Assembly (NCBI RefSeq): GCF_003018255.1 | Contig: NZ_CP027440.1 | Origin: Escherichia coli | GTDB taxonomy: Bacteria > Pseudomonadota > Gammaproteobacteria > Enterobacterales > Enterobacteriaceae | Direction: 5' to 3' (one strand) | Length of the DNA: 64,000 nt | Shown here: piece by piece, positions 1 through 33,010 of the stretch | Layout of the letters: each line of letters starts with the position of its first letter | How positions within the stretch are numbered: position 1 is the first letter of the stretch | The notes under the pieces: model-generated | Databases searched by the model: none | What the model was told of the DNA's origin: nothing | What the model saw: only the letters and a program-made list of their open reading frames with translations | Translations under genes and position numbers: made by a program

Positions 1-512
1 TGTTTAATCTCCTGGCATTCTTCAGGAATACCCCCTTTTATTTCCCTGCCATAAGCGCCTACTTTAAACACCACGCACAGGGCATCACGGGAGAGCGACG
101 GGGTCCACCAGGAGTCCATGTTAAACATGGAGGGGATTCTCATTACCCCCAGCTTTTCACAGAGCCAGACAAGGAAATCAGGACGCTTTCTTAACTCGCG
201 TTCAGCGGCTTCAATCATTGCGGCAATCGCCGGTCCTTCAGGGCATGACTCATCAGGTCTGGCAATAAAGCACGGTCCGTCCCCGATAAAAGCCACATCA
301 TCGCGCTTACGCCAGCCCGCAGGCAGAGCACCAGAAAAATAAAACTCACTGATTACGTCCATGGCAAACGGCTTTAAGCGCAATCCGGCAGCGCCTGTAT
401 TTTTCAGTAATGCCCGAAGAATACTGTTGCGTAGCGGTAAAACAGTCTGTTGATATTTGGTGAAATATTTATTTGTCTGCACACGGTCTAATTTGAAATA
501 AAAATATGCCAT
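1..512 (-). CDS. hypothetical phage early protein, N-terminal ~170 codons only (3' end beyond window)
   Basis: Hand translation: ATG at 512-510 preceded by AAGGAACAGG Shine-Dalgarno; frame stays open to position 1. Not in the ORF track because it has no stop in the window. No family recognised. Confidence 0.45.
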   Translation of the reverse strand, partial: MAYFYFKLDRVQTNKYFTKYQQTVLPLRNSILRALLKNTGAAGLRLKPFAMDVISEFYFSGALPAGWRKRDDVAFIGDGPCFIARPDESCPEGPAIAAMIEAAERELRKRPDFLVWLCEKLGVMRIPSMFNMDSWWTPSLSRDALCVVFKVGAYGREIKGGIPEECQEIK

Positions 513-609
513 ATATCCTGTTCCTTATTTTCAGTTTACAGGCGCAGGCAGTCCCCTGACGCGAGCGCCATACTTAAAACGATGTGATATTTAAAGATTT
601 AATGCGGTG

Positions 610-1140
610 TTATTTATTCAGTCCGGCGTCCTGTTCAAAAGGCTCGACATAAAAACTTTCAGCGCCTTTATTCACCTTAATACCGGCAATGCCTTTCACT
701 GCATCCGGCTCCGCCAGGACCGCTTCCTTGTTCACTTCCTCTTTCGTGCGGATGAATCGCTCAAGCCCCATACGGCGCAGCATTTCAATCACACCTTCCA
801 CATCACGGCTGACGCTGCATGATGGATTTCCCAGCCGCCATGATACTGTTCCGGTGGTCAGATTGGCTGTTTTGGTTTTGCCGCCGTTCGTCAGCTCATC
901 GCGGTTGGTTTTGCACCAGTCCTGAATCCCCTTAAAAAGCACTTTGATTTCTTTTTTAAGGTTTTCAATCTGCGGCGTATAACGGGCGGTGATTTCTGCC
1001 ACTTCATCATTCATCGCCGTTTCCAGCCGCAGCGCCTCTCGCTGAATATCGCCCAGGGTACGGATATCGCGGCTGACTTCTTCGCGGGTCTGCGGTGCAG
1101 CCTCGGCTGCGGCCTTTAATTTTGTAACACGTTTAGCCAT
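610..1140 (-). CDS. gam: Gam-like host-nuclease inhibitor (Mu Gam family)
   Basis: 176 aa ORF; sequence (LETAMNDEVAEIT...NRDELTNGGKTKTANL...FIRTKEEVNKEA) closely parallels Mu Gam as recalled; AAGGA RBS upstream of ATG at 1140. Confidence 0.85.
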   Translation of the reverse strand: MAKRVTKLKAAAEAAPQTREEVSRDIRTLGDIQREALRLETAMNDEVAEITARYTPQIENLKKEIKVLFKGIQDWCKTNRDELTNGGKTKTANLTTGTVSWRLGNPSCSVSRDVEGVIEMLRRMGLERFIRTKEEVNKEAVLAEPDAVKGIAGIKVNKGAESFYVEPFEQDAGLNK

Positions 1141-1151
1141 TTTGTTTTTCC

Positions 1152-1445
1152 TTATTGCAGTGTGCCTGATGCTTTATGCACGCGGTGGCGTTTAATGATG
1201 GCATCCGCCCCAAAAGCCTGTACAGATGCCTGAAATTCCGCTGAGAGAAACTGAATAATTTCAGGACTGTGATACTGGAGAATACTTGCATAAACGTCAC
1301 AGAGTGACGTCGGCCTGTTATTCGTATCACGTTCTGTTTTTACATCCACACCAATCTTTTCATGCACTTCAACACAGTCATTGCCTGCCGGTTTTTCGTC
1401 ATGCGAAACATGCTTAAATTCAAAAATAACGCGTACTTTGCTCAT
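1152..1445 (-). CDS. hypothetical small protein (paralog A of a tandem pair)
   Basis: ORF track 1152..1472; likely start is the internal ATG at 1445 (MSKVRVIFEFKHV...) with AGGGG RBS; shares N-terminal motif and a C-terminal segment with the adjacent ORF. Confidence 0.5.
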   Translation of the reverse strand: MSKVRVIFEFKHVSHDEKPAGNDCVEVHEKIGVDVKTERDTNNRPTSLCDVYASILQYHSPEIIQFLSAEFQASVQAFGADAIIKRHRVHKASGTLQ

Positions 1446-1449
1446 GGAA

Positions 1450-1722
1450 TTACCCCTGCTGATTAAATTCATTACCTTTAATAACCCCGGAACGCATGCT
1501 CATATCTTTCATGAGCGCACTGGCTTTCATTGCCACAAGTTCAGCAAAGTCTCTGCTTTCCGCGAGCATAACCACCCCAAAAATCATGGCGGGTCCATCA
1601 CCTTTCTGCTTTATCCCGGTTGAACGTATGTCCAGACTTACCCCCATGCGCACTGTTCCATCAGCGTTTTTATGGATAACGTGCTCCTTGTATTCGAAAA
1701 TAATGCGTACGACTTTACTCAT
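1450..1722 (-). CDS. hypothetical small protein (paralog B of a tandem pair)
   Basis: 90 aa ORF starting MSKVVRIIFEYKEHV; GAGGA RBS; stop overlaps start of the next gene (4 bp), consistent with translational coupling in the early operon. Confidence 0.5.
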   Translation of the reverse strand: MSKVVRIIFEYKEHVIHKNADGTVRMGVSLDIRSTGIKQKGDGPAMIFGVVMLAESRDFAELVAMKASALMKDMSMRSGVIKGNEFNQQG

Positions 1723-2000
1723 CCTCTGGTCCTCGTTCTGTTTGGATAACTGACCCGGCGTCTGACCTCACGGCAGAACCGAATCATGGCATTAAAGGCT
1801 TCTTCCTCCGTCACCGCTTCCGGTATCCCCGGAACCAGTAACTGCTCCTGTTCATCACGTCCATGACGCGCCATAACCTCAATCACATGCCGTACCGTGG
1901 CAGGCTTTCCGGCAACTATCGGCAATGCACCTTCCGGCAGGACGTAACCAAACTCAATAAGACCACTCGACCACGCCCATGCAATGAGATTTTTTTTCAC
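1719..2000 (-). CDS. hypothetical small early protein (GTG start)
   Basis: 93 aa ORF in the tightly packed minus-strand operon; first codon is GTG; no recognisable family. Confidence 0.4.
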   Translation of the reverse strand: MKKNLIAWAWSSGLIEFGYVLPEGALPIVAGKPATVRHVIEVMARHGRDEQEQLLVPGIPEAVTEEEAFNAMIRFCREVRRRVSYPNRTRTRG

Positions 2001-2001
2001 C

Positions 2002-2256
2002 TCACACCTCCCAGTAAACCGTGCAGCCGCTGATGCGGGTGGCCTTCACACGGCGGCGCAGGCCGTTGGTCTGTATGGTGATTTCAATTTCACCGGTTCC
2101 CTGCACGTTGCCTACCGGCGGCGTGGTTTTCAGTGCAAAACGTTGCGGATAGCGCTTACTGCGTTCCAGTACCGCACCGGCAAGTTCGGTCAGACGGCGC
2201 GCGCTGTTCAGGGAGTCGAATAAATTCATTTTGTTACCGCAGGATTGCATATTCAT
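2002..2256 (-). CDS. hypothetical small early protein
   Basis: ORF track 2002..2268; ATG at 2256 has a GAGGTG RBS so is the preferred start; no recognisable family. Confidence 0.4.
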   Translation of the reverse strand: MNMQSCGNKMNLFDSLNSARRLTELAGAVLERSKRYPQRFALKTTPPVGNVQGTGEIEITIQTNGLRRRVKATRISGCTVYWEV

Positions 2257-2268
2257 ATAACACCTCAT

Positions 2269-2490
2269 TTAGCTGACTTGTTTCGCACCAACAGAACGGC
2301 ATATTCCGCTGTAAACGTCTGTCGCACCTTCGCGATCAAGTCCGGCAGATATCACCATTCGTGTGCGGTCATTAAATTCAAAAAGAAAATCGCCACATTC
2401 TTTATTTTCGGCCAGTGAAATCACCTTCACGTTATCGAAATTAACCAGGTAAAAGCGTCCGTAAATATCAGGAATATTAAATACCGCCAT
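2269..2490 (-). CDS. small early protein in the position of Mu kil (73-75 aa)
   Basis: ORF 2269..2496 immediately after the B homolog with a GTGA/TGA start-stop overlap; ATG at 2490 has an AGGTG RBS. Kil assignment is by position and size only. Confidence 0.4.
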   Translation of the reverse strand: MAVFNIPDIYGRFYLVNFDNVKVISLAENKECGDFLFEFNDRTRMVISAGLDREGATDVYSGICRSVGAKQVS

Positions 2491-2492
2491 AA

Positions 2493-3425
2493 TCACACCT
2501 GTGAGAGTAATTCAGGGTTGGTATAAACCTCTTTAAAGGCCGCATTAATATGTTTTTCTGTCAGCGCCGCGCCTTCACCGCTGGCGGTGAGCCACGCCTG
2601 GTTAAGCGTATGTGTCAGAACGCGTAACGCTCCCGGCTTTTCAGCGATAGCCTGCATGACGGCCAGCTCGGCCTCACCACTGATCCCCCACGCCCTGGCA
2701 ATGGCCAGCACATCCGCCTTTTTGGCCTTGCGAAGTTGTTTTGTACGGGCAAGACGGCTGAACAGGCGCGATAAATCATCAAAGGCGCGGCGTCCACCTT
2801 TAAACAATCCGCGCGGGTTACCAATAAGCACCATCCCGATCCCCGTGGCGTCCTGAATTGCCCGGAGTTGCTCCAGACCGTCAATACCAAGATGATCCGC
2901 CTCATCCACAATCACCAGTCCACGCGTTCCCATCAGGCGACGGCGGATGGCGCGGGATAATGCCCCTTTGTTCGCGCGGGTGTAATCAATCCCCAGCGCA
3001 TCGGCCAGCTCCAGCAGACACTCCGTGACGCTGGAGTGCGCGGGTGACAGGGTGATCATCCAGGTGTTTGGTTGCTCCTGGCAGTAATTACGGGCAGTGG
3101 CCGTTTTACCCACACCCGGTACGCCCACAATAACGTTAATACAGCCCATCAGACGAACCGCCTGAAACAGTGCGCGCAGCTCCTGGACTGTCTGCGTTTC
3201 CACAAACTGCGGCGGTTCCGGCAGTGCGCTTTGTTTATTCCAGTTCTCATACCAGGAACGCAGGGAAGCAGCCACAGCAGCGTTATCGCCTTTATATTTT
3301 CCCTTACGGAAAGCCGATAATGTGCCGTCGGAAATTCCCGCCTCTCTGGCGATGGCATACTGCGTCAGTACGCCGCCATCAATAAGTTCATCAATGGTCT
3401 TGATTACATCGTTAATATCAGTCAT
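2493..3425 (-). CDS. MuB-like transposition ATPase
   Basis: 310 aa; Walker A GVPGVGKT, and extended similarity to Mu B as recalled (PEPPQFVETQTV, LVIVDEADHL, KPGALR). Confidence 0.9.
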   Translation of the reverse strand: MTDINDVIKTIDELIDGGVLTQYAIAREAGISDGTLSAFRKGKYKGDNAAVAASLRSWYENWNKQSALPEPPQFVETQTVQELRALFQAVRLMGCINVIVGVPGVGKTATARNYCQEQPNTWMITLSPAHSSVTECLLELADALGIDYTRANKGALSRAIRRRLMGTRGLVIVDEADHLGIDGLEQLRAIQDATGIGMVLIGNPRGLFKGGRRAFDDLSRLFSRLARTKQLRKAKKADVLAIARAWGISGEAELAVMQAIAEKPGALRVLTHTLNQAWLTASGEGAALTEKHINAAFKEVYTNPELLSQV

Positions 3426-3496
3426 ATTATTAACCTCTCATTTGATACCTTGTTTAATCAAATAACCTGAGTCGCCGCTCGGGTTATTTTTTTATT

Positions 3497-5587
3497 TCAG
3501 GCCAGCGGGTCATTTTCTTTTAATTTCGCTTCCAGCAACTGCAATCCCCGCTGGAAATTACGCTCGTATTCTTCATCAGGTTCATCGTCAGCGACCGGTT
3601 GCTGAACGGTCACCGTATTACCCACAGGGCGGTATATGTTTTCCAGCCAGGGCTCCTGCGGCTTGTGCTCCAGCACGTTGACAACCTCATCCTCGGCATC
3701 ACGGATTTTTTCCTCTGCGCGTTTACGCATGCCTTTAAGGCGTTGCTGCTGTTTGTAGTATTCCGCGCTAACCGGGAAGGCTTCGCGTTTATTACCGTCC
3801 CATACCGCCTCGCAAATCACGCTGCCATCCAGGCGACGTACGGTAATTCGTTCGGCATCATGAATGTCATAGCTGATAAGCACCTTACGACCATGCTCGT
3901 CACGCAGCTCGGGCGCGTAGTAAATATTATTCAGCCAGCGTATTTCACAGCGTCTTACAGGGCGTTCCACCATCGGCCGGAACATATCCCGCAGCTCAAC
4001 ATCGGACAGCCATTCAATTTCCGTGTCCTCTTCCGCCAGGCGTTTTTTTCTGAACTCCGCCGGGCTGTAATGCTTGCCGTTCGGCTTCACCGGTAATTCA
4101 TCGTGCGGCCGGTTGTTGTACCACTCAACACCGTCACGAATGGCATCAATCAGTTCAGACCAGGACGGTAAATCACGCATCGCTGACTGCTGCCGGGCGT
4201 TCAGCCGTTTGCCCTGTTGCAGGGCAGTAAATGCCGAGCGTAAATCGCGGTTGGTTTTGCGTAACGTCTCGCGATCTGCACCTTTCCCGAAATAGGTGCG
4301 GTATTTACGGGCTATGCGCATCGGTAATGTGCGGTTAAGCCGTTCGATAATGCCTCGTCCCTGCGGATTACCGGCAATCCCGGTCGGGTGATTAATCCCC
4401 AGTCGCGGCAGTATCCCCACAACCTCCTTATCCAGGATGTCGGCGGTTTCCCCGGAGCCGTTATCCGAGTAATACAGAAACGGTTTGCCGTGATGGCGAA
4501 TGCCGTGCTGTATGGCACCGGCTACGGCGAAAACATTTTCAGCCAGGTCAAGGCTCCAGCCCACCACAAAGCGCGTGCCACCGTCGATAACAAAGGTCAC
4601 TTCCGGTGCAAATGGCCGACCGTGAACCGGGTGTGCGCATTTCAGCTTCATGCCGTGACCGTCACCAATCCAGACATAATTCACCGGCATTCTGGACCAG
4701 TCGCGGCGCGTGAATCCCTCAAGCTGGCGGTATTCACTGCCGGTCACCCGGCCTTTTTGTTTCACCACTTCCGGCAGTTTCTTCATTGCGCGGCGAATGG
4801 TGTCATAAGACGGCATGATATCGAGCATATAAGGCTCATCAGCGTGCCGGTGCTGCCATTCAGCGACAAAATCCTCGTAAGCCTCGGTCATTGGTCGGCC
4901 GTTTGACTGGCGATACTGCGCCAGAAATTCGGGCAGCCAGTTAATATCTTCAGCTTTTATTTCCTGGCGCTTACCCGGTGCCAGTAAAAGCAGGCGTTCA
5001 GCGGCGTTCTGCGCCTTGTTAAAGGCCGCAATCCAGCGTTTCAGCGTTATTTCACTCAACGCACGGCTGTTTCCCTTTTTGGCGTTCGCCGTCTCAACCA
5101 TTGCCACAATGCGCTCGTCCAGTTGCGAACGTGCCAGGTTGTCAACGATAAACCGGATAGCTTTCGCACAGCTGAAACCGGGTTGTTGCGCGACTTTCAT
5201 CACTTCGCTGACGATCGCAATTCGTGCATCAGCCACCTGGCGCTGGTTTTCAGTCAGGGCATTAAGGCGTTCAACCATCAGTTGTGGTGATCCGCGATAT
5301 GCCTCCACCGCATCAACCACGGCAGGCGAGCGTCTGGCCTTTGTCACCACCGGAGCCGGTGATTCATCAGCTTTTTGCGTCATCAGTTGAAGGGCATAAC
5401 GTTCACGCAATACTTGTTGCGCGCCAGAAGGCAAACAATCGATATTAAATTCGATTGCTTTTGTCCCCTTACGTTTGCGTAACATGGCTGCATTTCCCGC
5501 AGCTGCTTTTGTGAGTCGATGGCGAATGTTATGTTCCATCATTGGTAAATCAGGAAGACCAACACATTCTTTTGCTGTTACCCACAT
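3497..5587 (-). CDS. MuA-like DDE transposase
   Basis: 696 aa; N-terminus MWVTAKECVGLPDLP parallels Mu A MELWVSPKECANLPGLP; candidate catalytic D-D-E residues in WIGDGHG, YYSDNGSGE and GIIERLN; GGGGGA RBS. Confidence 0.9.
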   Translation of the reverse strand: MWVTAKECVGLPDLPMMEHNIRHRLTKAAAGNAAMLRKRKGTKAIEFNIDCLPSGAQQVLRERYALQLMTQKADESPAPVVTKARRSPAVVDAVEAYRGSPQLMVERLNALTENQRQVADARIAIVSEVMKVAQQPGFSCAKAIRFIVDNLARSQLDERIVAMVETANAKKGNSRALSEITLKRWIAAFNKAQNAAERLLLLAPGKRQEIKAEDINWLPEFLAQYRQSNGRPMTEAYEDFVAEWQHRHADEPYMLDIMPSYDTIRRAMKKLPEVVKQKGRVTGSEYRQLEGFTRRDWSRMPVNYVWIGDGHGMKLKCAHPVHGRPFAPEVTFVIDGGTRFVVGWSLDLAENVFAVAGAIQHGIRHHGKPFLYYSDNGSGETADILDKEVVGILPRLGINHPTGIAGNPQGRGIIERLNRTLPMRIARKYRTYFGKGADRETLRKTNRDLRSAFTALQQGKRLNARQQSAMRDLPSWSELIDAIRDGVEWYNNRPHDELPVKPNGKHYSPAEFRKKRLAEEDTEIEWLSDVELRDMFRPMVERPVRRCEIRWLNNIYYAPELRDEHGRKVLISYDIHDAERITVRRLDGSVICEAVWDGNKREAFPVSAEYYKQQQRLKGMRKRAEEKIRDAEDEVVNVLEHKPQEPWLENIYRPVGNTVTVQQPVADDEPDEEYERNFQRGLQLLEAKLKENDPLA

Positions 5588-5597
5588 ACATCCCCCA

Positions 5598-5864
5598 TCA
5601 AGCCACTTCTCTGGCGTCCACCTGGTATCTGCTGGGCCAGATTACAGCAGGTTCAACCCCTATTTTTTCGGCGATGGCGGCTTCGTATTTACGGCACTGG
5701 CGGTAAAACACATTGCGCATTGATCCGCTTTTTAATCCTAACTCCCTTTCCAGTTCAGGGAGGTCTGTGCCTTTGTTTTCAAGGGCTGCATATACCGCTT
5801 TAGCAGACCAGTCACACCCCTCTCGAACAAACAAATTATTCGATGCTTGTCTGGATACCCTCAT
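5598..5864 (-). CDS. Ner-like DNA-binding regulator
   Basis: 88 aa; C-terminal VIWPSRYQ and overall alignment to Mu Ner as recalled; AGAGGA RBS; first gene of the early operon. Confidence 0.8.
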   Translation of the reverse strand: MRVSRQASNNLFVREGCDWSAKAVYAALENKGTDLPELERELGLKSGSMRNVFYRQCRKYEAAIAEKIGVEPAVIWPSRYQVDAREVA

Positions 5865-6020
5865 TGTGTGATCCTCTCATGTTTACCTGAACCGATAATC
5901 AAAACCGGTTATCGATTTAGGTAAATCATAATCGCAAAATAATTCGATATCAACGGTTTTTTGCGAGCATATCGAAATTAAATGCGATGTCGATAATTTC
6001 TTTGTTTTATAGGGGGTTAT
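5865..6020. promoter_or_regulatory. divergent immunity/early control region (operators and promoters between ner and repressor)
   Basis: 156 bp AT-rich intergenic region between divergent genes with at least five copies of a CGATA/TATCG half-site (e.g. CGATAA at 5893 and 5991, TTATCG at 5909) in direct and inverted orientation. Confidence 0.55.
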
Positions 6021-6632
6021 ATGGATAAGGCAGAAAAAACCGTATCCAGTGCGGAACGGTTTATTGATATGGAAGGAATAAACCGATTTTCAGAACGCTT
6101 AGCTATGGCTATGGGAAACATGACAAACGTCGAACTGGCGACCCTTTGTGGACTATCTGAAGCCACAGTAAGAAATTACAGGAAGGGGAAAAACTTCCCT
6201 CCTTTGGATAAACTGGCCTTAATAGCTAAAGCCTGTAATTGTTCACTCGAATGGTTGGCCACAGGCAAGAACGAAGATGAATGCGGAAAAATCGAAAACA
6301 ATTGCGATTCAGGTTCGGGTATTGATCAGGCGCTTAGCTCTCTAAGCCCCCAAGAGAAGCAATTAATCCTTACATTCATCAGGCGAGAAGGTACTAATAA
6401 CCTTGTCAGGCTGGCAGCAATGAATACATCTACAATCAGCCAGGATGCGGTAGAAAGCATCATTGATGCCTTGCCATTACGTCCCGTACTAAAAAATGCA
6501 ATAAAGATAGGAATGGCGGGAAGTGAAGAAACAGACAAAGAGATTTTGCGCGTTATTGAGAAGTACAACTCGAGCAATAACGCCACCCAGGAATCAGGGG
6601 CAGTGACAGTAAAGAAAAATGTTGTTGGTTAA
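6021..6632 (+). CDS. prophage repressor, cI/XRE-type helix-turn-helix
   Basis: 203 aa; N-terminal HTH (ELATLCGLSEATVRNYRKGKNFPPLDKLALIAKACNCSLEWL); transcribed divergently from ner toward the prophage end as in Mu c; AGGGGG RBS. Not similar to Mu c itself. Confidence 0.7.
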   Translation: MDKAEKTVSSAERFIDMEGINRFSERLAMAMGNMTNVELATLCGLSEATVRNYRKGKNFPPLDKLALIAKACNCSLEWLATGKNEDECGKIENNCDSGSGIDQALSSLSPQEKQLILTFIRREGTNNLVRLAAMNTSTISQDAVESIIDALPLRPVLKNAIKIGMAGSEETDKEILRVIEKYNSSNNATQESGAVTVKKNVVG

Positions 6633-6776
6633 GCGCCATCGCTATCATGAGGTGGTGCTGTAAATACATATAGAGATCATATGACTCATCCCAAGATAAT
6701 CACGCTATTGAATAGTAATTCATGATGATTATCATACTGATTATAGTTAGATCGATTATGTGAGCATTTTGGCAGT

Positions 6777-6810
6777 TTGAAGATGTTTTGAAGATGTTTT
6801 GAAGAAGATT
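6777..6810. repeat. tandem direct repeats (TTGAAGATGTT x2 plus a variant) in attL, candidate internal transposase-binding sites
   Basis: Seen directly: TTGAAGATGTT TTGAAGATGTT TTGAAGAAGATT about 100-135 bp from the inferred end, similar spacing to Mu L2/L3. Confidence 0.45.
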
Positions 6811-6890
6811 TTAAGGGTAAATTAGCAGTATCAAATGTGTCGCCGTTTTTTGATCTTTTGACTATTTGTTGAGCAGTCGGTATCAAAAAG

Positions 6891-6912
6891 AGTTTTCCGT
6901 CCGAAGTATACA
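6891..6912. repeat. terminal transposase-binding site and prophage left end
   Basis: Reverse complement TGTATACTTCGGACGGAAAACT resembles the Mu terminal site (TGTAT...ACGAAAA) and ends in the TG/CA dinucleotide. Confidence 0.5.
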
Positions 6913-6981
6913 TCACCTGTTTTATTTCAGCATCTTACAGGTGATTTCACCTCCTTTCACTAAAACCCTTGTCGGTATCAA

Positions 6982-7311
6982 ATGATTCACCTGGTTACAA
7001 ACGATGGATTGATTGATAACCTGCCACAAGGATGTTGCGTGGAAGTAGCCTGTCTGGTTGATGCTAATGGCATTCAGCCGACCAAAGTCGGTACGTTACC
7101 TTCGCATCTGGCCGCCCTGATGCAAACCAACATCAACGTACAGACGCTGCTGACCGAAGCCATTCTTACGGAAAATCGCGACCGTGTTTACCACGCTGCG
7201 ATGATGGACCCGCATACTGCCGCCGTGCTGGGCATTGATGAAATATATGCTCTTGTTGACGACCTGATTGCCGCCCACGGCGACTGGCTGCCAGGCTGGT
7301 TGCACCGTTAA
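6982..7311 (+). pseudogene. melA: melA 3' fragment (alpha-galactosidase, glycoside hydrolase family 4 C-terminus)
   Basis: 109 aa ORF with GH4 C-terminal motifs (NDGLIDNLP...VEVACLVD...MMDPHTAA); in-frame stop 7 codons upstream at 6961, so the 5' part of the gene is absent. Confidence 0.6.
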
Positions 7312-7958
7312 GGGGTAATCGCTTCCGGCGCTCTGGTGATTAAGCCAAAGCGCCGTAGCTGGCGGCAATGAAAGCGAGCGAGGAATATCACCGTCGTTAA
7401 TGCGCCAAGCAGCGCGCAGAACATATCGGATTGCGTGTCCCACTGGTCGCCCTGGGTGCCGAGAAAATCATCCGCTCCCTGACCCATTGCCAGCGCCGCC
7501 CACCACTCGATTAATTCATACATCGCGCTTATCGCCAGCGCCACGCAGCAGACCAGAAACGCCACCATCTTATGTCCGTGAACGTACATCCCGCGCACAA
7601 GGATCTCTCGTGCCACCAGTGCAGGCACCAGCCCCTGGAAAAAATGTCCCAGTTTGTCATACGGATTACGGCTCAACCCCAGCCATTCCTGCACCTCAAA
7701 ACCAACGGGGACTTTCGCGTAGGTGTATTGTCCGCCGACCATCAGGATGATGGCGTGAAAGAAAATGAGCGTATAGAGCAGCGGCGTTAACGGATAACGT
7801 TTAGCGGTGGCAAGCAGTAGCGGCACGACAATAATCACCGGTGTCACTTCCATCAGCCAGGTGAGTTTGTCATTGGCCGAAATGCCGGTATAAATCAGGA
7901 TTAACGTTAGCGCCAGTGCGCCGGTGTTAAGAATTAACGGCTTGAGTGTGCGGGTCAT
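7308..7958 (-). CDS. yjdF: inner membrane protein YjdF
   Basis: 216 aa hydrophobic ORF in the K-12 position next to fumB. Confidence 0.75.
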   Translation of the reverse strand: MTRTLKPLILNTGALALTLILIYTGISANDKLTWLMEVTPVIIVVPLLLATAKRYPLTPLLYTLIFFHAIILMVGGQYTYAKVPVGFEVQEWLGLSRNPYDKLGHFFQGLVPALVAREILVRGMYVHGHKMVAFLVCCVALAISAMYELIEWWAALAMGQGADDFLGTQGDQWDTQSDMFCALLGALTTVIFLARFHCRQLRRFGLITRAPEAITP

Positions 7959-8080
7959 GGTGAGTTCGCAAGTCAGGGAAAATACTGACTATTGACCAGT
8001 AAGCGTGAAATTACAATCGCAAAAGAGGTGGCCCAGGGGGATCACCTGGCAGCATGCTGCCAGGCGCTGGGCCGAAGAGG

Positions 8081-9727
8081 TTACTTAGTGCAGTTCGCGC
8101 ACTGTTTGTTGACGATTTGCTGGAAGAAGTCGTTACCTTTGTCATCGACCAGGATAAACGCCGGGAAATCTTCTACTTCGATTTTCCAGATAGCTTCCAT
8201 ACCCAGCTCCGGATAAGCGACGCATTCCAGATGCTTGATGCTCTGCTGCGCCAGTACCGCCGCCGGACCGCCGATACTACCGAGGTAGAAGCCGCCATGT
8301 TTATGACACGCGTCGGTAACCTGCTGACTGCGGTTACCTTTCGCCAGCATGATCATGCTGCCGCCGTGGGATTGCAGCAGATCCACGTAGGAGTCCATAC
8401 GACCTGCGGTGGTTGGGCCAAGTGAACCTGATGGATAACCGGCAGGGGTTTTCGCCGGACCCGCGTAGTAGATCGGGTGATCTTTGATGTACTGCGGCAG
8501 TTCTTTACCGGCGTCAATCAGCTCTTTCAGCTTGGCGTGTGCAATATCTCGGCCCACGATAATGGTGCCGGTGAGCGACAAACGAGTGGAAACCGGATAT
8601 TGCGAAAGCTGGGCGAGGATCTCTTTCATCGGGCGGTTAAGGTCGACCTTCACCGCTTCGCCTTCACCGGCCTGGCGCAGTTCTTGTGGAATGTACTGGC
8701 CTGGATTGCGTTCCAGCTTTTCGATCCAGATACCTTCGCGGTTGATTTTCGCTTTAATGTTACGGTCAGCGGAGCAGGAGACGCCCATGCCTACCGGGCA
8801 GGATGCACCGTGACGCGGCAGACGGATAACGCGAATATCGTGCGCGAAGTATTTACCACCAAACTGCGCGCCAAGACCGAGTTTCTGGGCCTCTTCCAGC
8901 AGTTCCTGTTCCAGCTGGACATCGCGGAACGCCTGACCATGTTCGTTCCCTTCCGTCGGCAGTTCATCGTAATAGTGGGCGCTTGCTAACTTGACGGTTT
9001 TCAGGTTGGTTTCCGCAGACGTACCGCCAATCACAAACGCGATATGGTACGGCGGGCAAGCTGCCGTACCGAGGGTACGCATTTTCTCGACGAGGAAGTT
9101 TTTCAGTTTGCCGGGCGTCAGCAGGGCTTTGGTTTCCTGGTAGAGATACGTTTTGTTGGCAGAGCCGCCGCCTTTCGCAACGCAAAGGAATTTGTACTCA
9201 TCGCCATCTACCGCGTACAGGTCGATTTGCGCAGGCAGGTTCGTGCCGGTGTTGACCTCTTTATACATGTCCAGCGGCGCGTTCTGTGAATAGCGCAGGT
9301 TATCTTCGATATAGGTGTTATAGACACCTTTCGACAGTGCTTCTTCATCACCGCCACCGGTCCACACGCGCTGGCCTTTTTTACCGACGATGATCGCGGT
9401 GCCGGTATCCTGGCAGGTCGGCAGCACGCCTTTGGCGGCGATTTCGGAGTTTCTTAAGAATTGCAGCGCCACGTACTTGTCGTTTTCGCTGGCTTCTGGA
9501 TCGTGAAGAATAGCCGCAACCTGTTTCTGGTGTGCTGGGCGGAGCATGAAAGAAGCGTCGTGAAAGGCTTGCTGCGCCAGCAGGGTCAGGGCTTCTGGTT
9601 CCACTTTCAGGATGGTTTCGCCGTCGAAGTCGGCAACGCTAACGTAATCGGAAGTGAGTAGATAGTATTCGGTATTGTCTTTCCCCATCGGGAAAGGTGC
9701 CTGGTAGATAAAGGGTTTGTTTGACAT
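8081..9727 (-). CDS. fumB: class I fumarate hydratase (anaerobic)
   Basis: 548 aa; recognised sequence and synteny. Confidence 0.9.
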
Positions 9728-9804
9728 AGCTTCCAGCCTGTAACTCTGTATTTGTTATTCGAAAATGGCGTGCCGCGTAGTCACGGGCGGCACGCAAAGT
9801 GCAT

Positions 9805-11145
9805 TTATAAGAACCCGTACATCGCGGCGAAGATCCAGCCGAAGACGCACGATACGCTCACACCAATCAACCCCGGCAGAATAAAGCTGTGGTTGATGAC
9901 GAAGCGACCGATGTGGGTGGTGCCGGAACGGTCAAACTGAATCGCTGCCAGATCGCTCGGATAAGTCGGCAGGATGTAATAACCGTAGCAAGCCGGTGCT
10001 GAAGCCACGATGTATGCCGGATCAACGCCGATCGCCAGCGCGACCGGAACAATCGCCGCCAGCGCCGCAGCCTGAGAGTTTACAAACTTGGAAACCAGCA
10101 GCAGAACAATGGCATAGGCCCACGGATACTCTTTCACCATTTCGCCCAGTACGCCCTGAATTTCAGACATATGCGCACCGAACATGGTTTCAGCCATCCA
10201 TGCGATACCGTACACCGCCACGATGGCGATCATACCGGAACGGAAGACTTCGTTTTTTGAGATAGACGCGGGATTGGTTTTGGTCAGGATAATAATCAGC
10301 GCCCCGGTCAGCAGCATAAACATCTGAATAACCAGTACCATCGACAGCGGTTTGCCACCGAAGGATGGACGCAGGTCCGAATCAGCACCAAGAAGTGCGA
10401 CTACAGCGATTGCCCCGAGGAAGATCCACATTGCAAGCCAGTTGCTTTTCGGCAGTTTTTTATCGAGCAGCGTCGCGGTATCACCGTAAACATACTCACG
10501 GTTTTCCGGTATGGAGATGAATTTCTGGAACTCTTCGTCTTTATCCAGATCTTTACCGCGGAACCAGCTGAAGATACCGATCGCCAGGATACCGATTAAC
10601 GTCGATGGAATGGTGATTGCCAGCAGGTCGAGGAACTCAAGATGGCGACCATCAAAGGTGACATTACCCAGCATCGCAACCAGAGACACGACTGCAACCG
10701 ACACCGGACTGGCGATAATCCCCATCTGTGCACCGATAGAACTTGCCGCCATCGGGCGTTCCGGACGGATGTTGTTCTTAATGGCGACGTCGTAGATGAT
10801 CGGCAGAATGGTGTAAACCACATGACCCGTACCGCAAAGAATGGTCAGCGTACAGGTCACAAACGGCGCGACAATTGAGACATATTTCGGGTTGCGGCGC
10901 AGCAGCTTCTCGGCAATTTGCAGCATGACATCAAGACCGCCCGAAGCTTGCAAGGTCGCCGATGCTGCCACCACCGCAATGATAACCAGCATGACATCAA
11001 CCGGTGGTTTACCTGGCTGAAGGTGGAAGACGAAGACCAGAATGACCAGACCGATACCGCCTAATAAACCCAGCGCGATACCACCCTTTCTGGCACCATA
11101 AAACAGACATATCAGTATTATGATAAGTTGGATAGTAAATAACAT
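9805..11145 (-). CDS. dcuB: anaerobic C4-dicarboxylate transporter DcuB
   Basis: 446 aa polytopic membrane protein, paralog of the ORF at 27873; synteny with fumB and dcuRS. Confidence 0.9.
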
Positions 11146-11715
11146 GTGTGAACCCTCGCGATAATCCTATTTAAATTTTTGCTGAATAGATCACAGTCAC
11201 GTTCTGTTTTGTATGAACTGTTTTCAGAGCCTGACTAAATATCCGTTTGGTCGTTACCGGCTTGAGCAAATACCTCACAGTGAATATTGGCTGATTAAAG
11301 CAGCGGCAAATTTATGCACTGTGATAAGCGGCTTTTTCAGAGAGAAAAACTCTCTGGCGATGGGTTTATAGTTTGTACTGCGCAGATGTTAATGTTTTGT
11401 TTGCTGTTATCTTATTGATATTTATCGGTCTATTTTTTGTTCTCAGGGCAGATATCATTAGGTTTATAGATTAATCTGATCTACCCATTTGTGGGTAAAA
11501 ATACACATAATACGGGTGACATAATAGTTAATTAACTTTTGTTAGCGTTTTGAAATTAAAAACACCGTTCACCTGAAGAGATATTAATTTTTAGCGATGA
11601 TGGAGGGATAATTATATTTGATCTGGCACAAGTTTTACTGATGAAGGATGTAACTTGTGCCAGGGGTATTTTGCATTACAGTAATAATTATTACTTACAG
11701 ATAACCAGCGATCCG
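11146..11715. promoter_or_regulatory. dcuB upstream regulatory region
   Basis: 570 bp AT-rich non-coding region upstream of dcuB, as in K-12 where it carries the dcuB promoter; individual binding sites not mapped here. Confidence 0.4.
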
Positions 11716-12435
11716 TTATTGGCAATATTGTTTCAGTAGTGAGTAGTGTTCTGCCTGAATACGGTAACGGTAAACCGGACGCCCCGTGACGCCATAATGG
11801 ATACTGGTGAACAAGATGTGGCAGTTGACCAGCCAGATGAGGTATTTACGGCAGGAAACACGCGAAATGTTAACCTCGTTAGCCAGCTCGTCGGTTGAAA
11901 ACTCATAGTCCTGATGCGCGTCAATCCACTGACACAGCGTGCGTAACGTCTGCGGCGTTAAGCCTTTTGGCAAGCGACGAGGATCCTGCTCGTTGGAGCT
12001 GCTGCCGTGGATTAGCTGATCAAGCTCGGCCTGGTCATAATACTGATGTTTTTCCAGCGCCATTTTCTTTTGCCGCCAGCCGGTGAGCGCCTCTTCAAAG
12101 CGGGAAGCCTGGAAGGGTTTGATCAGGTAATCCACGACACCGTAATGCAGCGAATCTTTAATGGTTGCCGCATCGGCTGCGGAGGAGATGACAATCACAT
12201 CACTTTTGCAACGCGCGTTATGCAGGACAGGCAGTAAATCGAGCCCGTTCTCTTTTTGCATATAGATATCGAGCAATATCAGGTCGATAGGCGTATCGCT
12301 ATTGAAGATAATCTCTTTGGCTTTCTCCAGCGTCGAAGCCGTTCCACAGCATTGAAAGCCCGGGATTTGTGCCACGTATCGGCGATTCAGCTCCGCGACC
12401 ATTGCGTCGTCATCGATAATTAATACATTGATCAT
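11716..12435 (-). CDS. dcuR: response regulator DcuR
   Basis: 239 aa; receiver domain (LIIDDD...D) plus HTH; overlaps dcuS stop. Confidence 0.9.
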   Translation of the reverse strand: MINVLIIDDDAMVAELNRRYVAQIPGFQCCGTASTLEKAKEIIFNSDTPIDLILLDIYMQKENGLDLLPVLHNARCKSDVIVISSAADAATIKDSLHYGVVDYLIKPFQASRFEEALTGWRQKKMALEKHQYYDQAELDQLIHGSSSNEQDPRRLPKGLTPQTLRTLCQWIDAHQDYEFSTDELANEVNISRVSCRKYLIWLVNCHILFTSIHYGVTGRPVYRYRIQAEHYSLLKQYCQ

Positions 12436-14063
12436 CTGTTCGACCTCTCCCCGTCCCAGGGTATCTGGACAAAAAATTGTGTGAAAATCCCGGGTTCCGA
12501 TTCCACGGCGATGCTGCCGCCGAGATTTTCTACCTGTTGTTTGACAAGTGCTAAACCGACGCCTCGCTCGCTTCCTTTTGTCGAGACACCTTTGTCAAAA
12601 ATGTGATCGATTTTGTCGGGTGCGATCCCCGGTCCATCATCGTTAACTTCGCAGTGCAGCCAGCCGTGACGGTAGTGCAATGTTACGCTAATTTCGCCAC
12701 CGGGTTCCGGTCCTAATGCCTCCAGCGCGTTTTCTATCAGATTTCCCAACGTGGTAATCAGCGTCGCGACCTGATCCTCACTACCGCTGTCTGGCAGCTG
12801 GCTTTCACTGTTTAAAATCAGCGTATGGCCTAAATCGGTCGCGCGGTTAATCTTGCTGATTAAAAAACCAGCGATAACCGGAGATTTGATCTTACCCAGC
12901 AGAGAGCCAATCTCTTCCTGATAGTTATTGGCTGTTTTGAGAATGTAATCTTCCAACTGCTTATAACTCTTCAGATGCAATAATCCGAGAATCACATGCA
13001 ATTTATTCATAAATTCGTGGGATCGTTCACGAAGTGCGTCAGCATAGTTGACCAGACCGTCGAGTCGCTGCATCAGTTTACGTACTTCAGTTTTGTCCCT
13101 GAAGGTTGAAATGGCACCGATGATAACGCCATTACTGCGCACCGGAACGGTGTTGATCAGTAATAGTCGGTCCTTAATCGTAATCTCTTCGTCGCGGCGT
13201 GGAGTACCGTCGCGTAACACTTCCGAGACATCTACCACCTGTGACCACGAGTGGCTTAGCGTCGACAGTTTCTCATCGTCCTGCGACTTACGGTAATTCA
13301 GCAATTCTTGTGCGGCATCGTTGATCAGCGTGACTTCACCGCGATCGTCCACGGCAACGACGCCTTCTTTGATAGACTGCAACATGGCCTGGCGTTGCTC
13401 AAACAGCGTGGAGATTTCGTAGGGTTCCAGGCCGAAAAGGATTTTTTTCAGTACTTTAACCAGAATGCAGGTGCCGATCAGCCCGACCAGCATGCCAAAT
13501 AATACCGACCAGATGATGCTCCAGCGACTGTCATTGATCTGTTGGGTCACGCGACTTAACTCAAGGCCGATCGCCACCACGCCAATTTGTTTATGATTTT
13601 CATCGTAGATGGGGGTAAATACGCGTAAAGCCTGCGCCAGAAAACCGCGATTGATAGCGACATTTTCTTCGCCATTCAGCGCTTTAAGGATGTCATCACC
13701 TTTAAATGGCTGACCAATACGCTGGGCTTCAGGATGCGAGTAGCGAAGACTTTGCATATCGGTAACGACAATAAACAGCAGATCGTTGCGTTTGCGCACG
13801 GCTTCCGCGATGGCCTGGATTCCACTCTCCTGTGGTTTTTTCTGCAAGCCCTGACGGATTTCCGGCGAGTCGGCGAGGGTACGCGCTACTGCCAGTGCCT
13901 TGTTAGCTAGCCCGTCTCGCGTCATATCACTGATTTGCGAGAAGTAAATCAGATGCACCACCAATAGCACCGAGAACAGTACCGCGCTGACCATTAAGAT
14001 CACTGTGGTACTCAATTTCATCGGACGTTTGCGTAACATGCGGTAGGGCAATGAATGTCTCAT
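12432..14063 (-). CDS. dcuS: sensor histidine kinase DcuS
   Basis: 543 aa; N-terminal membrane helix and C-terminal kinase domain; synteny. Confidence 0.9.
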   Translation of the reverse strand: MRHSLPYRMLRKRPMKLSTTVILMVSAVLFSVLLVVHLIYFSQISDMTRDGLANKALAVARTLADSPEIRQGLQKKPQESGIQAIAEAVRKRNDLLFIVVTDMQSLRYSHPEAQRIGQPFKGDDILKALNGEENVAINRGFLAQALRVFTPIYDENHKQIGVVAIGLELSRVTQQINDSRWSIIWSVLFGMLVGLIGTCILVKVLKKILFGLEPYEISTLFEQRQAMLQSIKEGVVAVDDRGEVTLINDAAQELLNYRKSQDDEKLSTLSHSWSQVVDVSEVLRDGTPRRDEEITIKDRLLLINTVPVRSNGVIIGAISTFRDKTEVRKLMQRLDGLVNYADALRERSHEFMNKLHVILGLLHLKSYKQLEDYILKTANNYQEEIGSLLGKIKSPVIAGFLISKINRATDLGHTLILNSESQLPDSGSEDQVATLITTLGNLIENALEALGPEPGGEISVTLHYRHGWLHCEVNDDGPGIAPDKIDHIFDKGVSTKGSERGVGLALVKQQVENLGGSIAVESEPGIFTQFFVQIPWDGERSNR

Positions 14064-14242
14064 CAGCTTCCTTGTGTGACAAATTTCTTAAGCATTATCT
14101 CTGATGAGGCGGGTAATTCAAAGGGAGTAAGAATGATTGGCATATAGGGGAAGAGACTCTGGCAACGGAAACTGCCAGTGCTGTATGAAGATTCCAGGGC
14201 TATGCTTATAGTGAAAACCATACTGATGAGAGAGGGAAGGTC

Positions 14243-14473
14243 ATGGATCAGGCGCTACTGGACAGGGGTTATCGCTGTTATACCGGCGAAAAGATCGATG
14301 TCTATTTCAACACTGCGATATGTCAGCATTCTGGCAATTGCGTACGTGGCAACGGCAAGTTATTTAATCTCAAACGAAAGCCGTGGATCATGCCGGATGA
14401 AGTCGACGTCGCCACTGTGGTTAAAGTGATTGATACGTGCCCGAGCGGCGCGCTGAAATACCGTCATAAATAA
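14243..14473 (+). CDS. yjdI: small protein YjdI
   Basis: 76 aa cysteine-containing ORF in the K-12 position. Confidence 0.7.
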
Positions 14474-14484
14474 GCGAGGGTAAA

Positions 14485-14757
14485 ATGGAAATACGCGAAG
14501 GCCACAATAAATTTTACATTAATGACGAACAGGGCAAGCAAATCGCTGAAATTGTCTTTGTGCCGACCGGAGAGAATTTAGCGATTATCGAACATACCGA
14601 TGTCGATGAAAGCCTGAAAGGGCAAGGGATTGGTAAACAGCTGGTTGCGAAAGTCGTGGAAAAAATGCGTCGGGAAAAACGAAAAATTATCCCACTATGC
14701 CCATTTGCGAAACACGAATTTGATAAAACGCGGGAGTATGATGATATTCGCAGTTGA
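14485..14757 (+). CDS. yjdJ: GNAT-like small protein YjdJ
   Basis: 90 aa ORF; synteny. Confidence 0.7.
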
Positions 14758-14983
14758 TGGGAGAGTACAGAGTCACGATATTTTTCATGCTCTCCGCGGT
14801 GTGATGCAGGAGAGCATCTGAAGGGTAGGGGGATGCACAAAGAATGGGCAGAGAGCGCGTTTTTTTGTCCCAAGTCATCCCCTTTACTGAGCAAAAAAAA
14901 GAATATCTCCTATATGAGAATCATCAATCGGGGTTAATAAGTTTTGCGTCCCCAGAGCGTTTAATATTGATAGGAGTCATATT

Positions 14984-15280
14984 ATGGAAGGTAAAAACAA
15001 GTTCAATACTTATGTTGTTTCTTTTGATTATCCATCATCTTATTCCTCAGTGTTCTTAAGGTTAAGATCATTGATGTATGATATGAGTTTCTCCTCTATC
15101 GTGGCTGATGAATATGGGATACCACGACAACTGAATGAAAACTCCTTCGCAATAACGACATCGTTAGCCGCAAGTGAAATCGAAGATTTAATCAGGCTTA
15201 AATGCTTAGACTTACCGGATATTGACTTTGACCTCAACATTATGACAGTTGATGACTATTTCCGTCAGTTTTACAAGTAG
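14984..15280 (+). CDS. ghoS: GhoS antitoxin (type V toxin-antitoxin, endoribonuclease)
   Basis: 98 aa ORF immediately upstream of the ghoT-like small ORF; K-12 synteny. Confidence 0.8.
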   Translation: MEGKNKFNTYVVSFDYPSSYSSVFLRLRSLMYDMSFSSIVADEYGIPRQLNENSFAITTSLAASEIEDLIRLKCLDLPDIDFDLNIMTVDDYFRQFYK

Positions 15281-15307
15281 CCAGGAAGGATAAGAAGAAC
15301 ATAAAAA

Positions 15308-15481
15308 ATGGCACTATTCTCTAAAATATTAATTTTTTATGTGATTGGTGTGAACATATCCTTTGTCATTATCTGGTTTATCTCACATGAGAAAACACAT
15401 ATTCGTTTACTTAGTGCATTTCTGGTCGGAATAACCTGGCCAATGAGTCTGCCTGTGGCATTACTTTTTTCTCTCTTTTAG
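15308..15481 (+). CDS. ghoT: GhoT small membrane toxin
   Basis: Hand-translated 57 aa hydrophobic peptide MALFSKILIFYVIGVNISFVIIWFISHEK...; below the ORF-track size cutoff. Confidence 0.75.
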   Translation: MALFSKILIFYVIGVNISFVIIWFISHEKTHIRLLSAFLVGITWPMSLPVALLFSLF

Positions 15482-15599
15482 GAGCTGTAGTTGAGTGGAC
15501 CCGCTGGTTATCTTGAAACGAAGCGTCTCTCCTCAAAACTGGATTTGCGGAATGACGAACGAAGCAGTCGCCTGACTGCTTCGTTCATTAAAGTGAAAT

Positions 15600-17117
15600 T
15601 TATTTCAGTGGGCGCATCGCCGGGAAGAGAATAACGTCGCGAATAGTATGACTGTTTGTAAACAGCATAATCATTCGGTCGATACCAATACCCAGACCAG
15701 CGGTTGGCGGCAGACCATATTCCAGCGCAGTTACGTAATCTTCGTCATAGAACATGGCTTCGTCGTCACCTGCAGCTTTAGCGTTAACCTGTTCCTGGAA
15801 ACGTTCAGCCTGATCTTCTGCGTCGTTTAATTCGCTAAAACCATTACCAATTTCACGACCACCGATGAAGAATTCAAAACGGTCGGTGATTTCCGGGTTA
15901 ACATCATTACGGCGCGCCAGCGGTGACACTTCTGCCGGATATTCCGTGATAAAGGTTGGCTGAATCAGATGTGCTTCTGCCACTTCATCAAAGATCTCCG
16001 TGACAATGCGTCCCAACCCCCAGCTTTTCTCTACCGTAATTCCGATAGATTCAGCTAATGCTTTAGCAGCATCAAAATTATCCAGATCCGCCATATCGGT
16101 TTCTGGACGATATTTTTTGATTGCTTCGCGCATGGTGAGTTTTTCAAACGGTTTGCCGAAATCAAACACATGCTCGCCATAAGTGACTTTAGTGGTACCC
16201 AGTACCTCTTGTGCCAGAGTGCGGAACAGTGATTCCGTCAGTTCAATCAAATCGTGGTAATCCGCATACGCCATGTAGAGTTCCATCATCGTGAACTCAG
16301 GATTATGACGAACAGAAATACCTTCATTACGGAAGTTACGGTTGATTTCGAATACCCGTTCAAAACCACCTACAACCAGACGTTTCAGATATAGCTCCGG
16401 CGCGATACGCAGGTACATATCTAAATCCAGAGCGTTATGATGGGTAATAAACGGGCGAGCAGATGCTCCACCTGGAATTACCTGCATCATCGGGGTTTCT
16501 ACTTCCATAAAGCCGCGAGCGACCATGAACTGACGGATAGCGGCCAGAATTTTTGAACGGACAACAAACGTTTGACGGGATTTATCGTTAGCGATGAGGT
16601 CCAGATAACGTTGACGATAACGGACTTCCTGATCCTGCAGACCATGGAATTTATCTGGTAAAGGACGTAGTGCTTTAGTCAGCAGGCGCAGCTCAGTACA
16701 GTGAATGGAAAGCTCACCCGTTTGCGTCTTAAACAGCGTACCGCGGGCACCGATAATGTCACCCAGATCCCATTTTTTAAACTGATCGTTATAAACACCT
16801 TCTGGCAGGCTATCTCTTGCAACGTACAGTTGAATACGGCCACCGACATCCTGCAACGTTACAAAGGAGGCTTTCCCCATAATACGACGGGTCATCATTC
16901 GGCCAGCAACCGAGACTTCAATGTTTAAGGATTCCAGTTCCTGGTTATCCTTCGCATCAAACTCTTCGTGCAACTGGTCAGAGGTATGGTCGCGGCGAAA
17001 ATCATTGGGAAACGCCACACCTTGCTGACGTAGTGCCGCCAGTTTTTCGCGGCGATTTCTCAGTTCATCGTTAAAATCAATAGCCTCATTGGCTCCCCGT
17101 GTTTCTCGTTCAGACAT
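15600..17117 (-). CDS. lysU: lysyl-tRNA synthetase, inducible
   Basis: ORF 15600..17144; start set at [12 protein letters not shown] matching the class II LysRS N-terminus; lies next to the cad operon as lysU does. Confidence 0.9.
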
Positions 17118-17353
17118 TTTGGTTCCTCTAAATCCAGCTTTCAATTTAGCGTAGATAAAGAGACAGATCGGTACACTGTATTATCTGCCTCGACTATTAA
17201 TAACTCAGTTTATCTTATCGAAACTAACGCTTACCTCAAGTTGATATCACTAATAAATAACCATAAAAATGGTTTAAATGACTTATTAATCTCGATTTGC
17301 TAGTGTGATAAACTGAAAGTTAATTTATTCATAACCAATTGTTTTTACGACAG

Positions 17354-18811
17354 TTAATCGTTGCTCTCCTGTATCATATTCGTCGGCGTGCTAAACAGAA
17401 AACGGGTAGCAAAGGCCAATACCACGATGATCGCGACACAAGCCAACGTCCACTCTCCCATCTGAGAAAAGAATCGCTGGTAAGCGGCAATTGCCATACC
17501 GCTAATTTGCGACTCTGTCGTCTGCTGTGCCACGACGCCTGCCAGCCAGTTGGCGACCGCGCCTGTTGCCAGCATATAAATACCGGTTAATACGCCAGAC
17601 ATTTTCAGACGCGTGATTTGCGCAATCGCCACCGGGTCAATAAAGAGTTCAGCAAAGCCCATTAGCGCCAGCCCGGATATCATCACGCCCATTGACGCTT
17701 GACCGCCAGCCGCTGCATGTCGGGCATCAAATGCCAGCAACATAAAGCCACAAGCCATCAGCAGTAGGCCAAAGGCAAACTTCAGCCAGACGCGCAATGC
17801 TGAATTGCCGCGGCTTTCTGGCGACGCCAGCCAGGCCAGAACAACCCCAGCGAGCATCACCGCAATAGCATTCACCGACTGGAATAGTGCTGTAGGTACT
17901 TCAATATTGAATGCCTGACGATTCACAAAGCGATCGATAAACAAGCTGATGGTACTGCCGCCCTGTTGTGCCAGTACCCAGAACAACGTCCCGACAAACA
18001 TCAACAATACAATTTGCCAAAGAGCACGGCGGTGTTCGGGGAATTTGATCATCATGCGGGCAATGATTTGTGCTGCAATGAGGCAAACGATCGCCAGCAA
18101 ATATCCGGACCAGTCGTTCTCCAGCAGCAGGGTAAAAAATACTGGGGCTAAACAGAGCATCACCACTAACCAGCTCCATACTGGTAAGGCAAATTTGACG
18201 CTAGTGAGCGCTTTTTTATCCATACTACGCGTGGACTGGAAATGACGATGACCACTTAAGAAAATCAACAAACCGATAAACATGCCGCCTCCCGCAAGGG
18301 CAAAGCCAACATGCCATCCATACCACTGAGCAGCCAGGCCGCAGGCGATGGGCGCGGCGATAGAACCGATATTGCCCGCAGCATATAGCAGCGAAAAACC
18401 GCCATCACGTCGATGATCGTTCTCGTCGTAGAGCTCGCCAAGCAAACAGCTGATGTTTGATTTGAATAAACCGTAGCCACAAATAATGATTGCCAGCGCC
18501 AGATACAGGCTAAAGGTTGAATTTGTATCAATGCCCAGCACCACATGGCCAAGGGTCATTAACAGCGCGCCGGCAATCACTGCAGTGCGGTTGCCGAGCA
18601 GGCGGTCGGCAAGCCAGCCGCCGAGAATAGGGGTAACGTAAACCAGAGAAGCATATGCGCTGAACAGGCTGATGGCATGGTTATCATCAAAACCAAGCTG
18701 ATGGGTGAGATAGAGAATGAGTAAGGCACGCATGCCGTAAAAACTGAAGTACTCCCAGATTTGGATCGCCACGATATAGTATATCGCGCGCGGCTGTGAG
18801 GGTGTTTTCAT
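17354..18811 (-). CDS. dtpC: dipeptide/tripeptide permease DtpC
   Basis: 485 aa POT-family transporter; synteny between lysU and cadA. Confidence 0.85.
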
Positions 18812-32814: not shown

Positions 32815-32976
32815 GGGTTGATGTCCGATTGCGCCCAAATTTTGGGCAACTGCGTAGATTTTCGATGGTAGCACAATCAGATTCGCTTATGACGGCGATG
32901 AAGAAATTGCGATGAAATGTGAGGTGAATCAGGGTTTTCACCCGATTTTGTGCTGATCAGAATTTTTTTTCTTTTT

Positions 32977-33010
32977 CCCCCTTGAAGGGGCGAAGCCTCA
33001 TCCCCATTTC
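32977..33010 (+). promoter_or_regulatory. groE heat-shock (sigma-32) promoter
   Basis: CCCCCTTGAA (-35) and CCCCATTTC (-10) with about 15 bp spacing upstream of groES, matching the sigma-32 consensus. Confidence 0.7.

Follow-up and report, generated by a model that had tools for sequence, protein, structure and literature searches.

An Sp18-like Mu-type prophage interrupts melA next to a common melB-less allele in Escherichia coli

The mel region of the 64,000-nucleotide stretch of Escherichia coli DNA analysed here (hereafter the window) is very likely the product of two independent and ordinary events, namely a common allele of the locus that lacks melB and the subsequent entry of an Sp18-like phage into melA. 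The gene order in K-12 is melR-melA-melB-yjdF, as the original prediction stated, and it was also right to observe that neither melB nor the 5′ part of melA is in its expected place: melB, melR and the 5′ part of melA, including the N-terminal NAD-binding/catalytic Glyco_hydro_4 domain, are absent from the entire 64 kb window. The prediction attributed these absences to one insertion accompanied by an adjacent deletion or rearrangement. Our comparisons instead place the phage/host junction to the base, identify the phage, separate the loss of melB from its arrival, and recover an isogenic genome in which the site is empty. The window holds a known phage type at a new but unremarkable site, within an allele that is itself known and common.

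The prophage junction and the melA remnant

The features at the junction are as follows.

1–6999, minus strand: left 7 kb, with the early genes, of a transposable Mu-type prophage (Sp18-like), whose other ~31.8 kb lies beyond window position 1
6998–7003, no strand: phage/host junction, with the terminal …CA of the phage at 6998–6999 and AACG at 7000–7003 as the predicted 4-bp target duplication
6982–7311, plus strand: chimeric 109-aa open reading frame made of six phage-end codons (MIHLVT) and the melA remnant
7000–7311, plus strand: melA 3′ remnant by homology to melA, codons 349–451 and stop, 23% of the gene

Alignments to intact melA and to other copies of the phage set the boundary at 6999|7000, where the phage end reads …GGTTACA. 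From the host side, similarity to the melA of K-12 and of strain E04 runs from window position 7000 onward (AACGATGG…), and the sequence to the left of 7000 is unrelated. From the phage side, copies at other loci match window 1–6999 at 100% and diverge directly past …GGTTACA; in strain War, identity extends through …CACCTGGTTACA and is followed by the sequence of a lambdoid portal gene. The insertion point falls past nucleotide 1044 of 1356, at codon 348 of 451. The prophage does therefore interrupt melA, as had been proposed, with its end not near 6912 but 87 bp further right. Uninterrupted melA alleles read CGT|AACGATGG in nine of nine cases, and because all nine have T where the window has A, the base at 6999 is a phage nucleotide. 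We considered the alternative that this A is a host base produced by a synonymous CGT to CGA change, and rejected it on the same nine alleles, the isogenic one among them.

The melA sequence in the window is a gene remnant and not a complete GH4 gene. Positions 7000–7311 are 98.4% identical to the final 312 nucleotides of K-12 melA, and the 102 residues of the remnant that were compared are identical in five other E. coli MelA proteins. The open reading frame earlier described as the C-terminal ~109 codons of melA is indeed melA-derived, but melA supplies 103 of its codons and the phage the first six. It begins with an ATG at 6982. The in-frame TAA at 6961–6963 is also where the original prediction saw a stop, but the 69 bp of non-coding sequence in which it was placed are left-end phage DNA and do not lie beyond the prophage. 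Against the Pfam model Glyco_hydro_4C the frame matches the last third alone (model positions 134–211 of 211, E = 2.6e-30). Inspection by eye reveals no obvious ribosome-binding site, the public collection records no gene for exactly this 109-aa product, and we presume the frame to be non-functional.

The phage/melA junction appears in none of 5426 complete E. coli genomes, an exact 32-mer across it was not found in viral, genome or metagenome contigs, and the exact predicted fusion product of the 5′ part of the gene, MelA(1–349) plus V, was not found in the public collection with either start codon. Its absence from all other public sequence searched is what an assembly artefact would produce, in which the end of a phage contig was misjoined to melA. 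We regard such an artefact as very improbable, since the break falls exactly at the authentic terminal nucleotide of the phage, whereas a chance misjoin would not be base-exact, and since the flank fits the NNNG target pattern displayed by six of seven intact insertions. Given its absence from the 5426 complete genomes, the melA::Sp18-like junction may serve as a strain marker.

The melB-less allele

On the other side of the melA remnant, two features differ from K-12.

7312–7341, no strand: filler of 20–30 bp in place of ~1.67 kb of K-12, comprising the melA–melB spacer, melB, the downstream spacer and the yjdF stop
7308–7958, minus strand: yjdF, 216-aa allele (209 aa in K-12), which continues across the filler and ends in a stop that overlaps that of melA

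Alignment to the K-12 region, the check that accompanied the original prediction, placed these breakpoints: homology covers 7000–7311, ends at the melA stop (7311), and restarts after a gap at 7332, just inside yjdF, with clean identity from 7342 by eye. The K-12 segment replaced spans positions 5268–6932 of our K-12 locus (L002), or about 4,343,267–4,344,931 of NC_000913.3, and we read its spacer downstream of melB as REP-like. Because the K-12 yjdF stop is lost with this segment, yjdF is seven codons longer in the window. The melA stop (7309–7311) overlaps the stop of the convergent yjdF, as had been noted from the sequence, and does so within TTAA. The two stops occupy opposite strands of this palindrome with no intergenic spacer or terminator, and the C-terminus of YjdF (…TRAPEAITP) is encoded by the filler. 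Beyond yjdF come fumB, dcuB and dcuR, the same as in K-12.

This arrangement is widespread. A 240-bp probe recovered the junction of the melA and yjdF stops in one piece, at 96.7–100% identity, from 1264 of 5426 complete E. coli genomes. The 30-bp filler occurs as one copy per genome in ~1262 E. coli genomes, always at the 3′ end of yjdF, and a second copy of the 30-mer was found in no E. coli genome. LF82, NRG 857C and Nissle 1917, which we take to be B2 strains, are among the carriers. The window has the filler (GGGGTAATCGCTTCCGGCGC…) and the 216-aa YjdF, and at the junction it is identical to strains E04 and LTC101; both strains have an intact 1356-nt melA (451 aa) beside yjdF, without melB and without phage. 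We also observed a melB-less allele with a frameshifted yjdF in LTC101. From the 496 blocks of the public collection in which the exact 216-aa YjdF is indexed, 24 contigs encoding it were read, and all 24 have an intact 451-aa melA alongside, no melB and no phage. A conserved pair of spacers flanking melB is common to all four of the melB-positive genomes inspected.

The draft genome GCA_024116395.1, to which one of these 24 contigs belongs, provides an isogenic comparison. It is 100.000% identical to window 7000–17650 (10,651 bp), and it has an intact melA, no melB and no prophage, which makes it effectively the empty-site parent. The uninterrupted melA-melR-adiA side was read from its contig ABGWPK010000004.1 (positions 292563–313213; L024), which served as the empty-site comparator.

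These genomes weigh on the proposal that the prophage took melB and most of melA with it through an adjacent deletion or rearrangement, leaving a hairpin and TCACC motifs as scars. Adjacent deletions are a known effect of Mu-type phages, and the window contains neither melB nor the 5′ part of melA. First, however, the melB-less junction does not adjoin the phage end but lies 312 bp from it. Second, the same junction recurs, identical in sequence, in the 1264 genomes, and the phage is present there in none of those inspected. Third, the isogenic genome is phage-free and already melB-less with melA intact, so that the parental lineage has no melB between melA and yjdF. Finally, the supposed scars are phage sequence, unchanged at other loci. 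The chance that a single phage-associated deletion accounts for the locus is negligible in our estimate. From the identical junction in 1264 genomes, the phage-free intact melA of the inspected ones, the isogenic genome, and the report of Touchon et al. (2009; PMC2617782), in whose list of functions that group B2 lacks melB is included, it follows that the loss of melB is old, widespread, already published, and unconnected to the prophage. K-12 synteny is the wrong null expectation for a natural isolate, since ~23% of complete E. coli genomes are melB-less at this exact junction, and reading the absence of melB as phage damage is wrong.

The melB-less mel locus of group B2 (PMC2617782) has lost melB and kept melR and melA, as in the allele of the window. 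The published record is of gene absence only, to which the present analysis adds the breakpoints, the filler and the 216-aa yjdF. A comparable case is the ‘70mel’ locus of STEC/EPEC O80:H2, where the entire mel operon (melR, melA and melB) is replaced by a 70-bp fragment and the strains are melibiose non-fermenters (PMC11945584). It is likewise a natural loss of mel genes with a short filler in their place, but a different event, since here melB alone is replaced, and by 20–30 bp. A source for our filler was sought among 100,044 species-representative genomes, where its first 20 nucleotides have three hits (Salmonella diarizonae and two unrelated MAGs). All three were rejected as sources, ~0.5 chance hits being expected for a 20-mer in 298 Gb. 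The S. diarizonae match lies inside a long open reading frame that we read as the malic-enzyme gene maeA.

The prophage, its ends and its target sites

The early genes of the prophage that fall within the window are listed below.

610–1140, minus strand: Gam-like host-nuclease inhibitor (phrog_491, E = 3.5e-70)
2493–3425, minus strand: MuB-like AAA+ DNA transposition protein (phrog_296, E = 7.7e-110)
3497–5587, minus strand: MuA-type transposase, 696-aa open reading frame (phrog_310 transposase, E = 1e-209)
5598–5864, minus strand: Ner-like early repressor (phrog_769, E = 2.5e-28)
6021–6632, plus strand: repressor c-like gene, reading toward the left phage end (phrog_3037, E = 3.3e-59)

Along its full length, window 1–6999 has 100% identity to prophage copies elsewhere in E. 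coli War, O157:H7 and O111:H11, and it aligns with positions 31842–38840 of the 38,840-bp War copy. As a query against complete E. coli genomes, this 7 kb has matches in 247 genomes and near-full coverage in 67, at up to 100% identity and at differing coordinates, and several genomes hold 2–4 copies of an Sp18-like prophage. The genes for a MuA-type DDE transposase and a MuB-type ATPase are adjacent and sit beside a divergent c/ner pair, with small early genes between the MuB-like ATPase and Gam in the visible 7 kb. Identical copies of the transposase are named ‘Mu transposase C-terminal domain-containing protein’ in RefSeq. Complete copies in other genomes measure 38.8–39.0 kb and encode Mor, lysis functions, a Mu-like head, a contractile tail, Com/Mom and an invertible tail-fibre segment. 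In every Sp18-like copy, outside the window, an 80-nt ‘tRNA-OTHER’ annotated by RefSeq lies between the virion-morphogenesis and head-morphogenesis genes (L004, 25379–25458; L009–L013).

The full copies occupy sites that vary by strain, including a portal gene, betT, etk, a position next to gabP, an adhesin gene, the dinI/bssS region and sorM, and so many unrelated sites indicate that the Sp18-like element moves by transposition and not by site-specific integration. This is in keeping with published work, where Sp18 and related phages are described as intact, Mu-like and transposable, with an insertion site particular to each strain (PMC2669165, PMC7430833, PMC10132054). Sp18 of E. coli O157:H7 Sakai shares with our prophage its ends (TGTAACCAGGTGAATCATTTGATACC… on the left and …CGCCGCGCTATA on the right), its gene order and its ~38.8 kb size. 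As here, Sp18-like STEC phages have variable insertion sites, and Sp18 itself sits in a sugar-utilisation (sorbose) gene, sorM (PMC7430833). Two differences from the Sp18 types are the melA site, which is used in none of the 5426 complete genomes, and the host, which is melB-less, unlike the melB-positive O157:H7 strain examined. Sp18-like Mu-type phages also occur within Stx2c- and Stx1a-converting prophages (LC727881.1, LC727895.1), and the War copy likewise interrupts a lambdoid portal gene; prophages, and not only host genes, are disrupted.

Resemblance to Mu is extensive in organisation. Gene c is divergent from ner, followed by A, B and, further on, gam; Mor and Com/Mom are present; the left terminus begins 5′-TG; insertion sites look near-random; and three putative end-binding sites are found at each end with Mu-like spacing (L1–L3/R1–R3). 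At the megablast level, no nucleotide similarity to Mu was found in the phage collection. The end features visible in the window are as follows.

6826–6835: putative transposase-binding core L3
6878–6887: putative transposase-binding core L2
6912–6945, no strand: inverted repeat ATCACCTGT-N16-ACAGGTGAT in the L1–L2 spacer, 55–88 nt from the left terminus of the phage
6973–6982, minus strand: putative transposase-binding core L1 (TTTGATACCG), 18 nt from the left terminus

The TTTGATAC(C/T) cores lie 18, 113 and 165 nt from the left terminus and, in the War copy, 18, 40 and 75 nt from the right terminus, and by analogy with Mu they may bind the transposase. The hairpin that the original prediction placed at 6913–6946 exists, with 9-bp arms at 6912–6920 and 6937–6945 around a 16-nt loop (RNA fold −11.8 kcal/mol, z = −3.1 against shuffles). 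It is unchanged in every phage copy compared. Copies at unrelated loci carry both the hairpin and the TCACC motifs in identical form, so these are phage sequence and not scars of an event at melA. With the same high confidence that we attach to the explanation as a whole, of which this forms part, we assign the hairpin and the TCACC/TTTGATACCG motifs to the attachment region at the left end of the phage. An intrinsic terminator was considered for the hairpin and rejected, as no run of T follows it and a terminator scan gave no call. In the interval from the repressor gene to the left-end repeats, three tandem 11-bp units (TTTGAAGATGT, the third imperfect) occupy window 6776–6808.

The outermost nucleotides of the element are 5′-TGTA… on the left and …CTATA-3′ on the right, that is, TA rather than CA. 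Target sites were checked at window 6996–7003, at both ends of one full copy (L004, 4486–4493 and 43326–43333), and in L005–L013 and L021–L023. Flanking duplications of 4 bp were present in seven of seven intact copies (CTGG, CGTG, TATG, GTTG, GGTG, AAGG and TTTA in window orientation), and all except one of these end in G (six of seven, NNNG). Compared with the empty site in K-12, the betT insertion has exactly 4 bp duplicated. A 5-bp duplication obtained by shifting the element boundaries was rejected, since no alternative boundary holds in all the copies and the duplication read from the betT empty site is exactly 4 bp. The left flank of the window copy, AACG, which is its sole visible flank, fits the 4-bp pattern.

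The Mu target duplication is given as 5 bp (Allet, 1979, as cited in PMC6379469), and the Mu right end is CA-3′. The Sp18-like phages differ in both respects, and it seems likely that their 4-bp duplication and TA-3′ right end reflect a strand-transfer stagger unlike that of the canonical 5-bp Mu transpososome. A literature search for Sp18 target duplications found nothing relevant, and a record may exist elsewhere. The 4-bp duplication is a mildly unexpected by-product of the analysis and tangential to the melA finding.

Two of the nine full copies lack a target duplication and have unrelated flanks. The copy in strain 142 (L009) lies between a fragment of an ISEc8 transposase gene and a ketoacyl-synthase-like pseudogene, and the copy in strain 8479 (L010), on the 167-kb ‘plasmid’ p8479-1, lies between the chromosomal genes ydhX-like and yeaW. 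Such flanks suggest phage-mediated or recombinational rearrangement, or misassembly. They also lend some weight to a more complex history of the window, in which insertion into melA was followed by an inversion, deletion or replicon fusion, whether Mu-mediated or homologous, so that the other phage end now lies at a different locus and the 5′ part of melA and melR are elsewhere or lost. The 2–4 phage copies in several genomes could recombine to this effect. We nevertheless judge a later rearrangement unlikely, because the other seven of the nine copies are simple insertions with 4-bp duplications, the flank at the visible left end of the prophage stays colinear, without a mismatch, with the parental genome over at least 10.6 kb, and the window bears no sign of a second phage copy.

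Proposed history and melibiose phenotype

A simple insertion into a pre-existing melB-less allele remains the reading that we prefer, and its steps can be outlined. In an allele of single origin, shared by a large part of E. coli, ~1.67 kb would long ago have been exchanged for the 20–30 bp filler, leaving melA intact and stop-to-stop with the yjdF that is longer by seven codons. Later, an Sp18-like Mu-type phage would have integrated after melA codon 348 with its left (repressor) end facing what is now the 3′ remnant, presumably by strand transfer catalysed by the MuA-type DDE transposase with assistance from the MuB-like ATPase. The right end of the phage lies outside the window, and melR and the 5′ three-quarters of melA are expected there. 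In a simple insertion the phage right end (…TATAGCGCGGCG in window orientation) would follow melA nucleotides 1–1048, which end …GGCAACGTCCGTAACG, to give …GGCAACGTCCGTAACG|TATAGCGCGGCGATTTTTTTGATACCG… with AACG duplicated. In other words, the unseen right junction would read …CCGTAACG|TATAGCG…, and the 5′ fragment of melA would encode MelA(1–349) plus V.

Because the NAD-binding/catalytic N-terminal 77% of the protein is split from the C-terminal 23%, we predict the loss of alpha-galactosidase, and the strain should be melibiose-negative, which keeps the phenotype of the original prediction a reasonable expectation. LacY is classically known as a melibiose carrier. As melA is intact in all the melB-less genomes inspected and LacY carries melibiose, it is probably the phage insertion, and not the missing melB, that makes the strain melibiose-negative. 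The intact state of melA also suggests that the gene retains a use in melB-less lineages.
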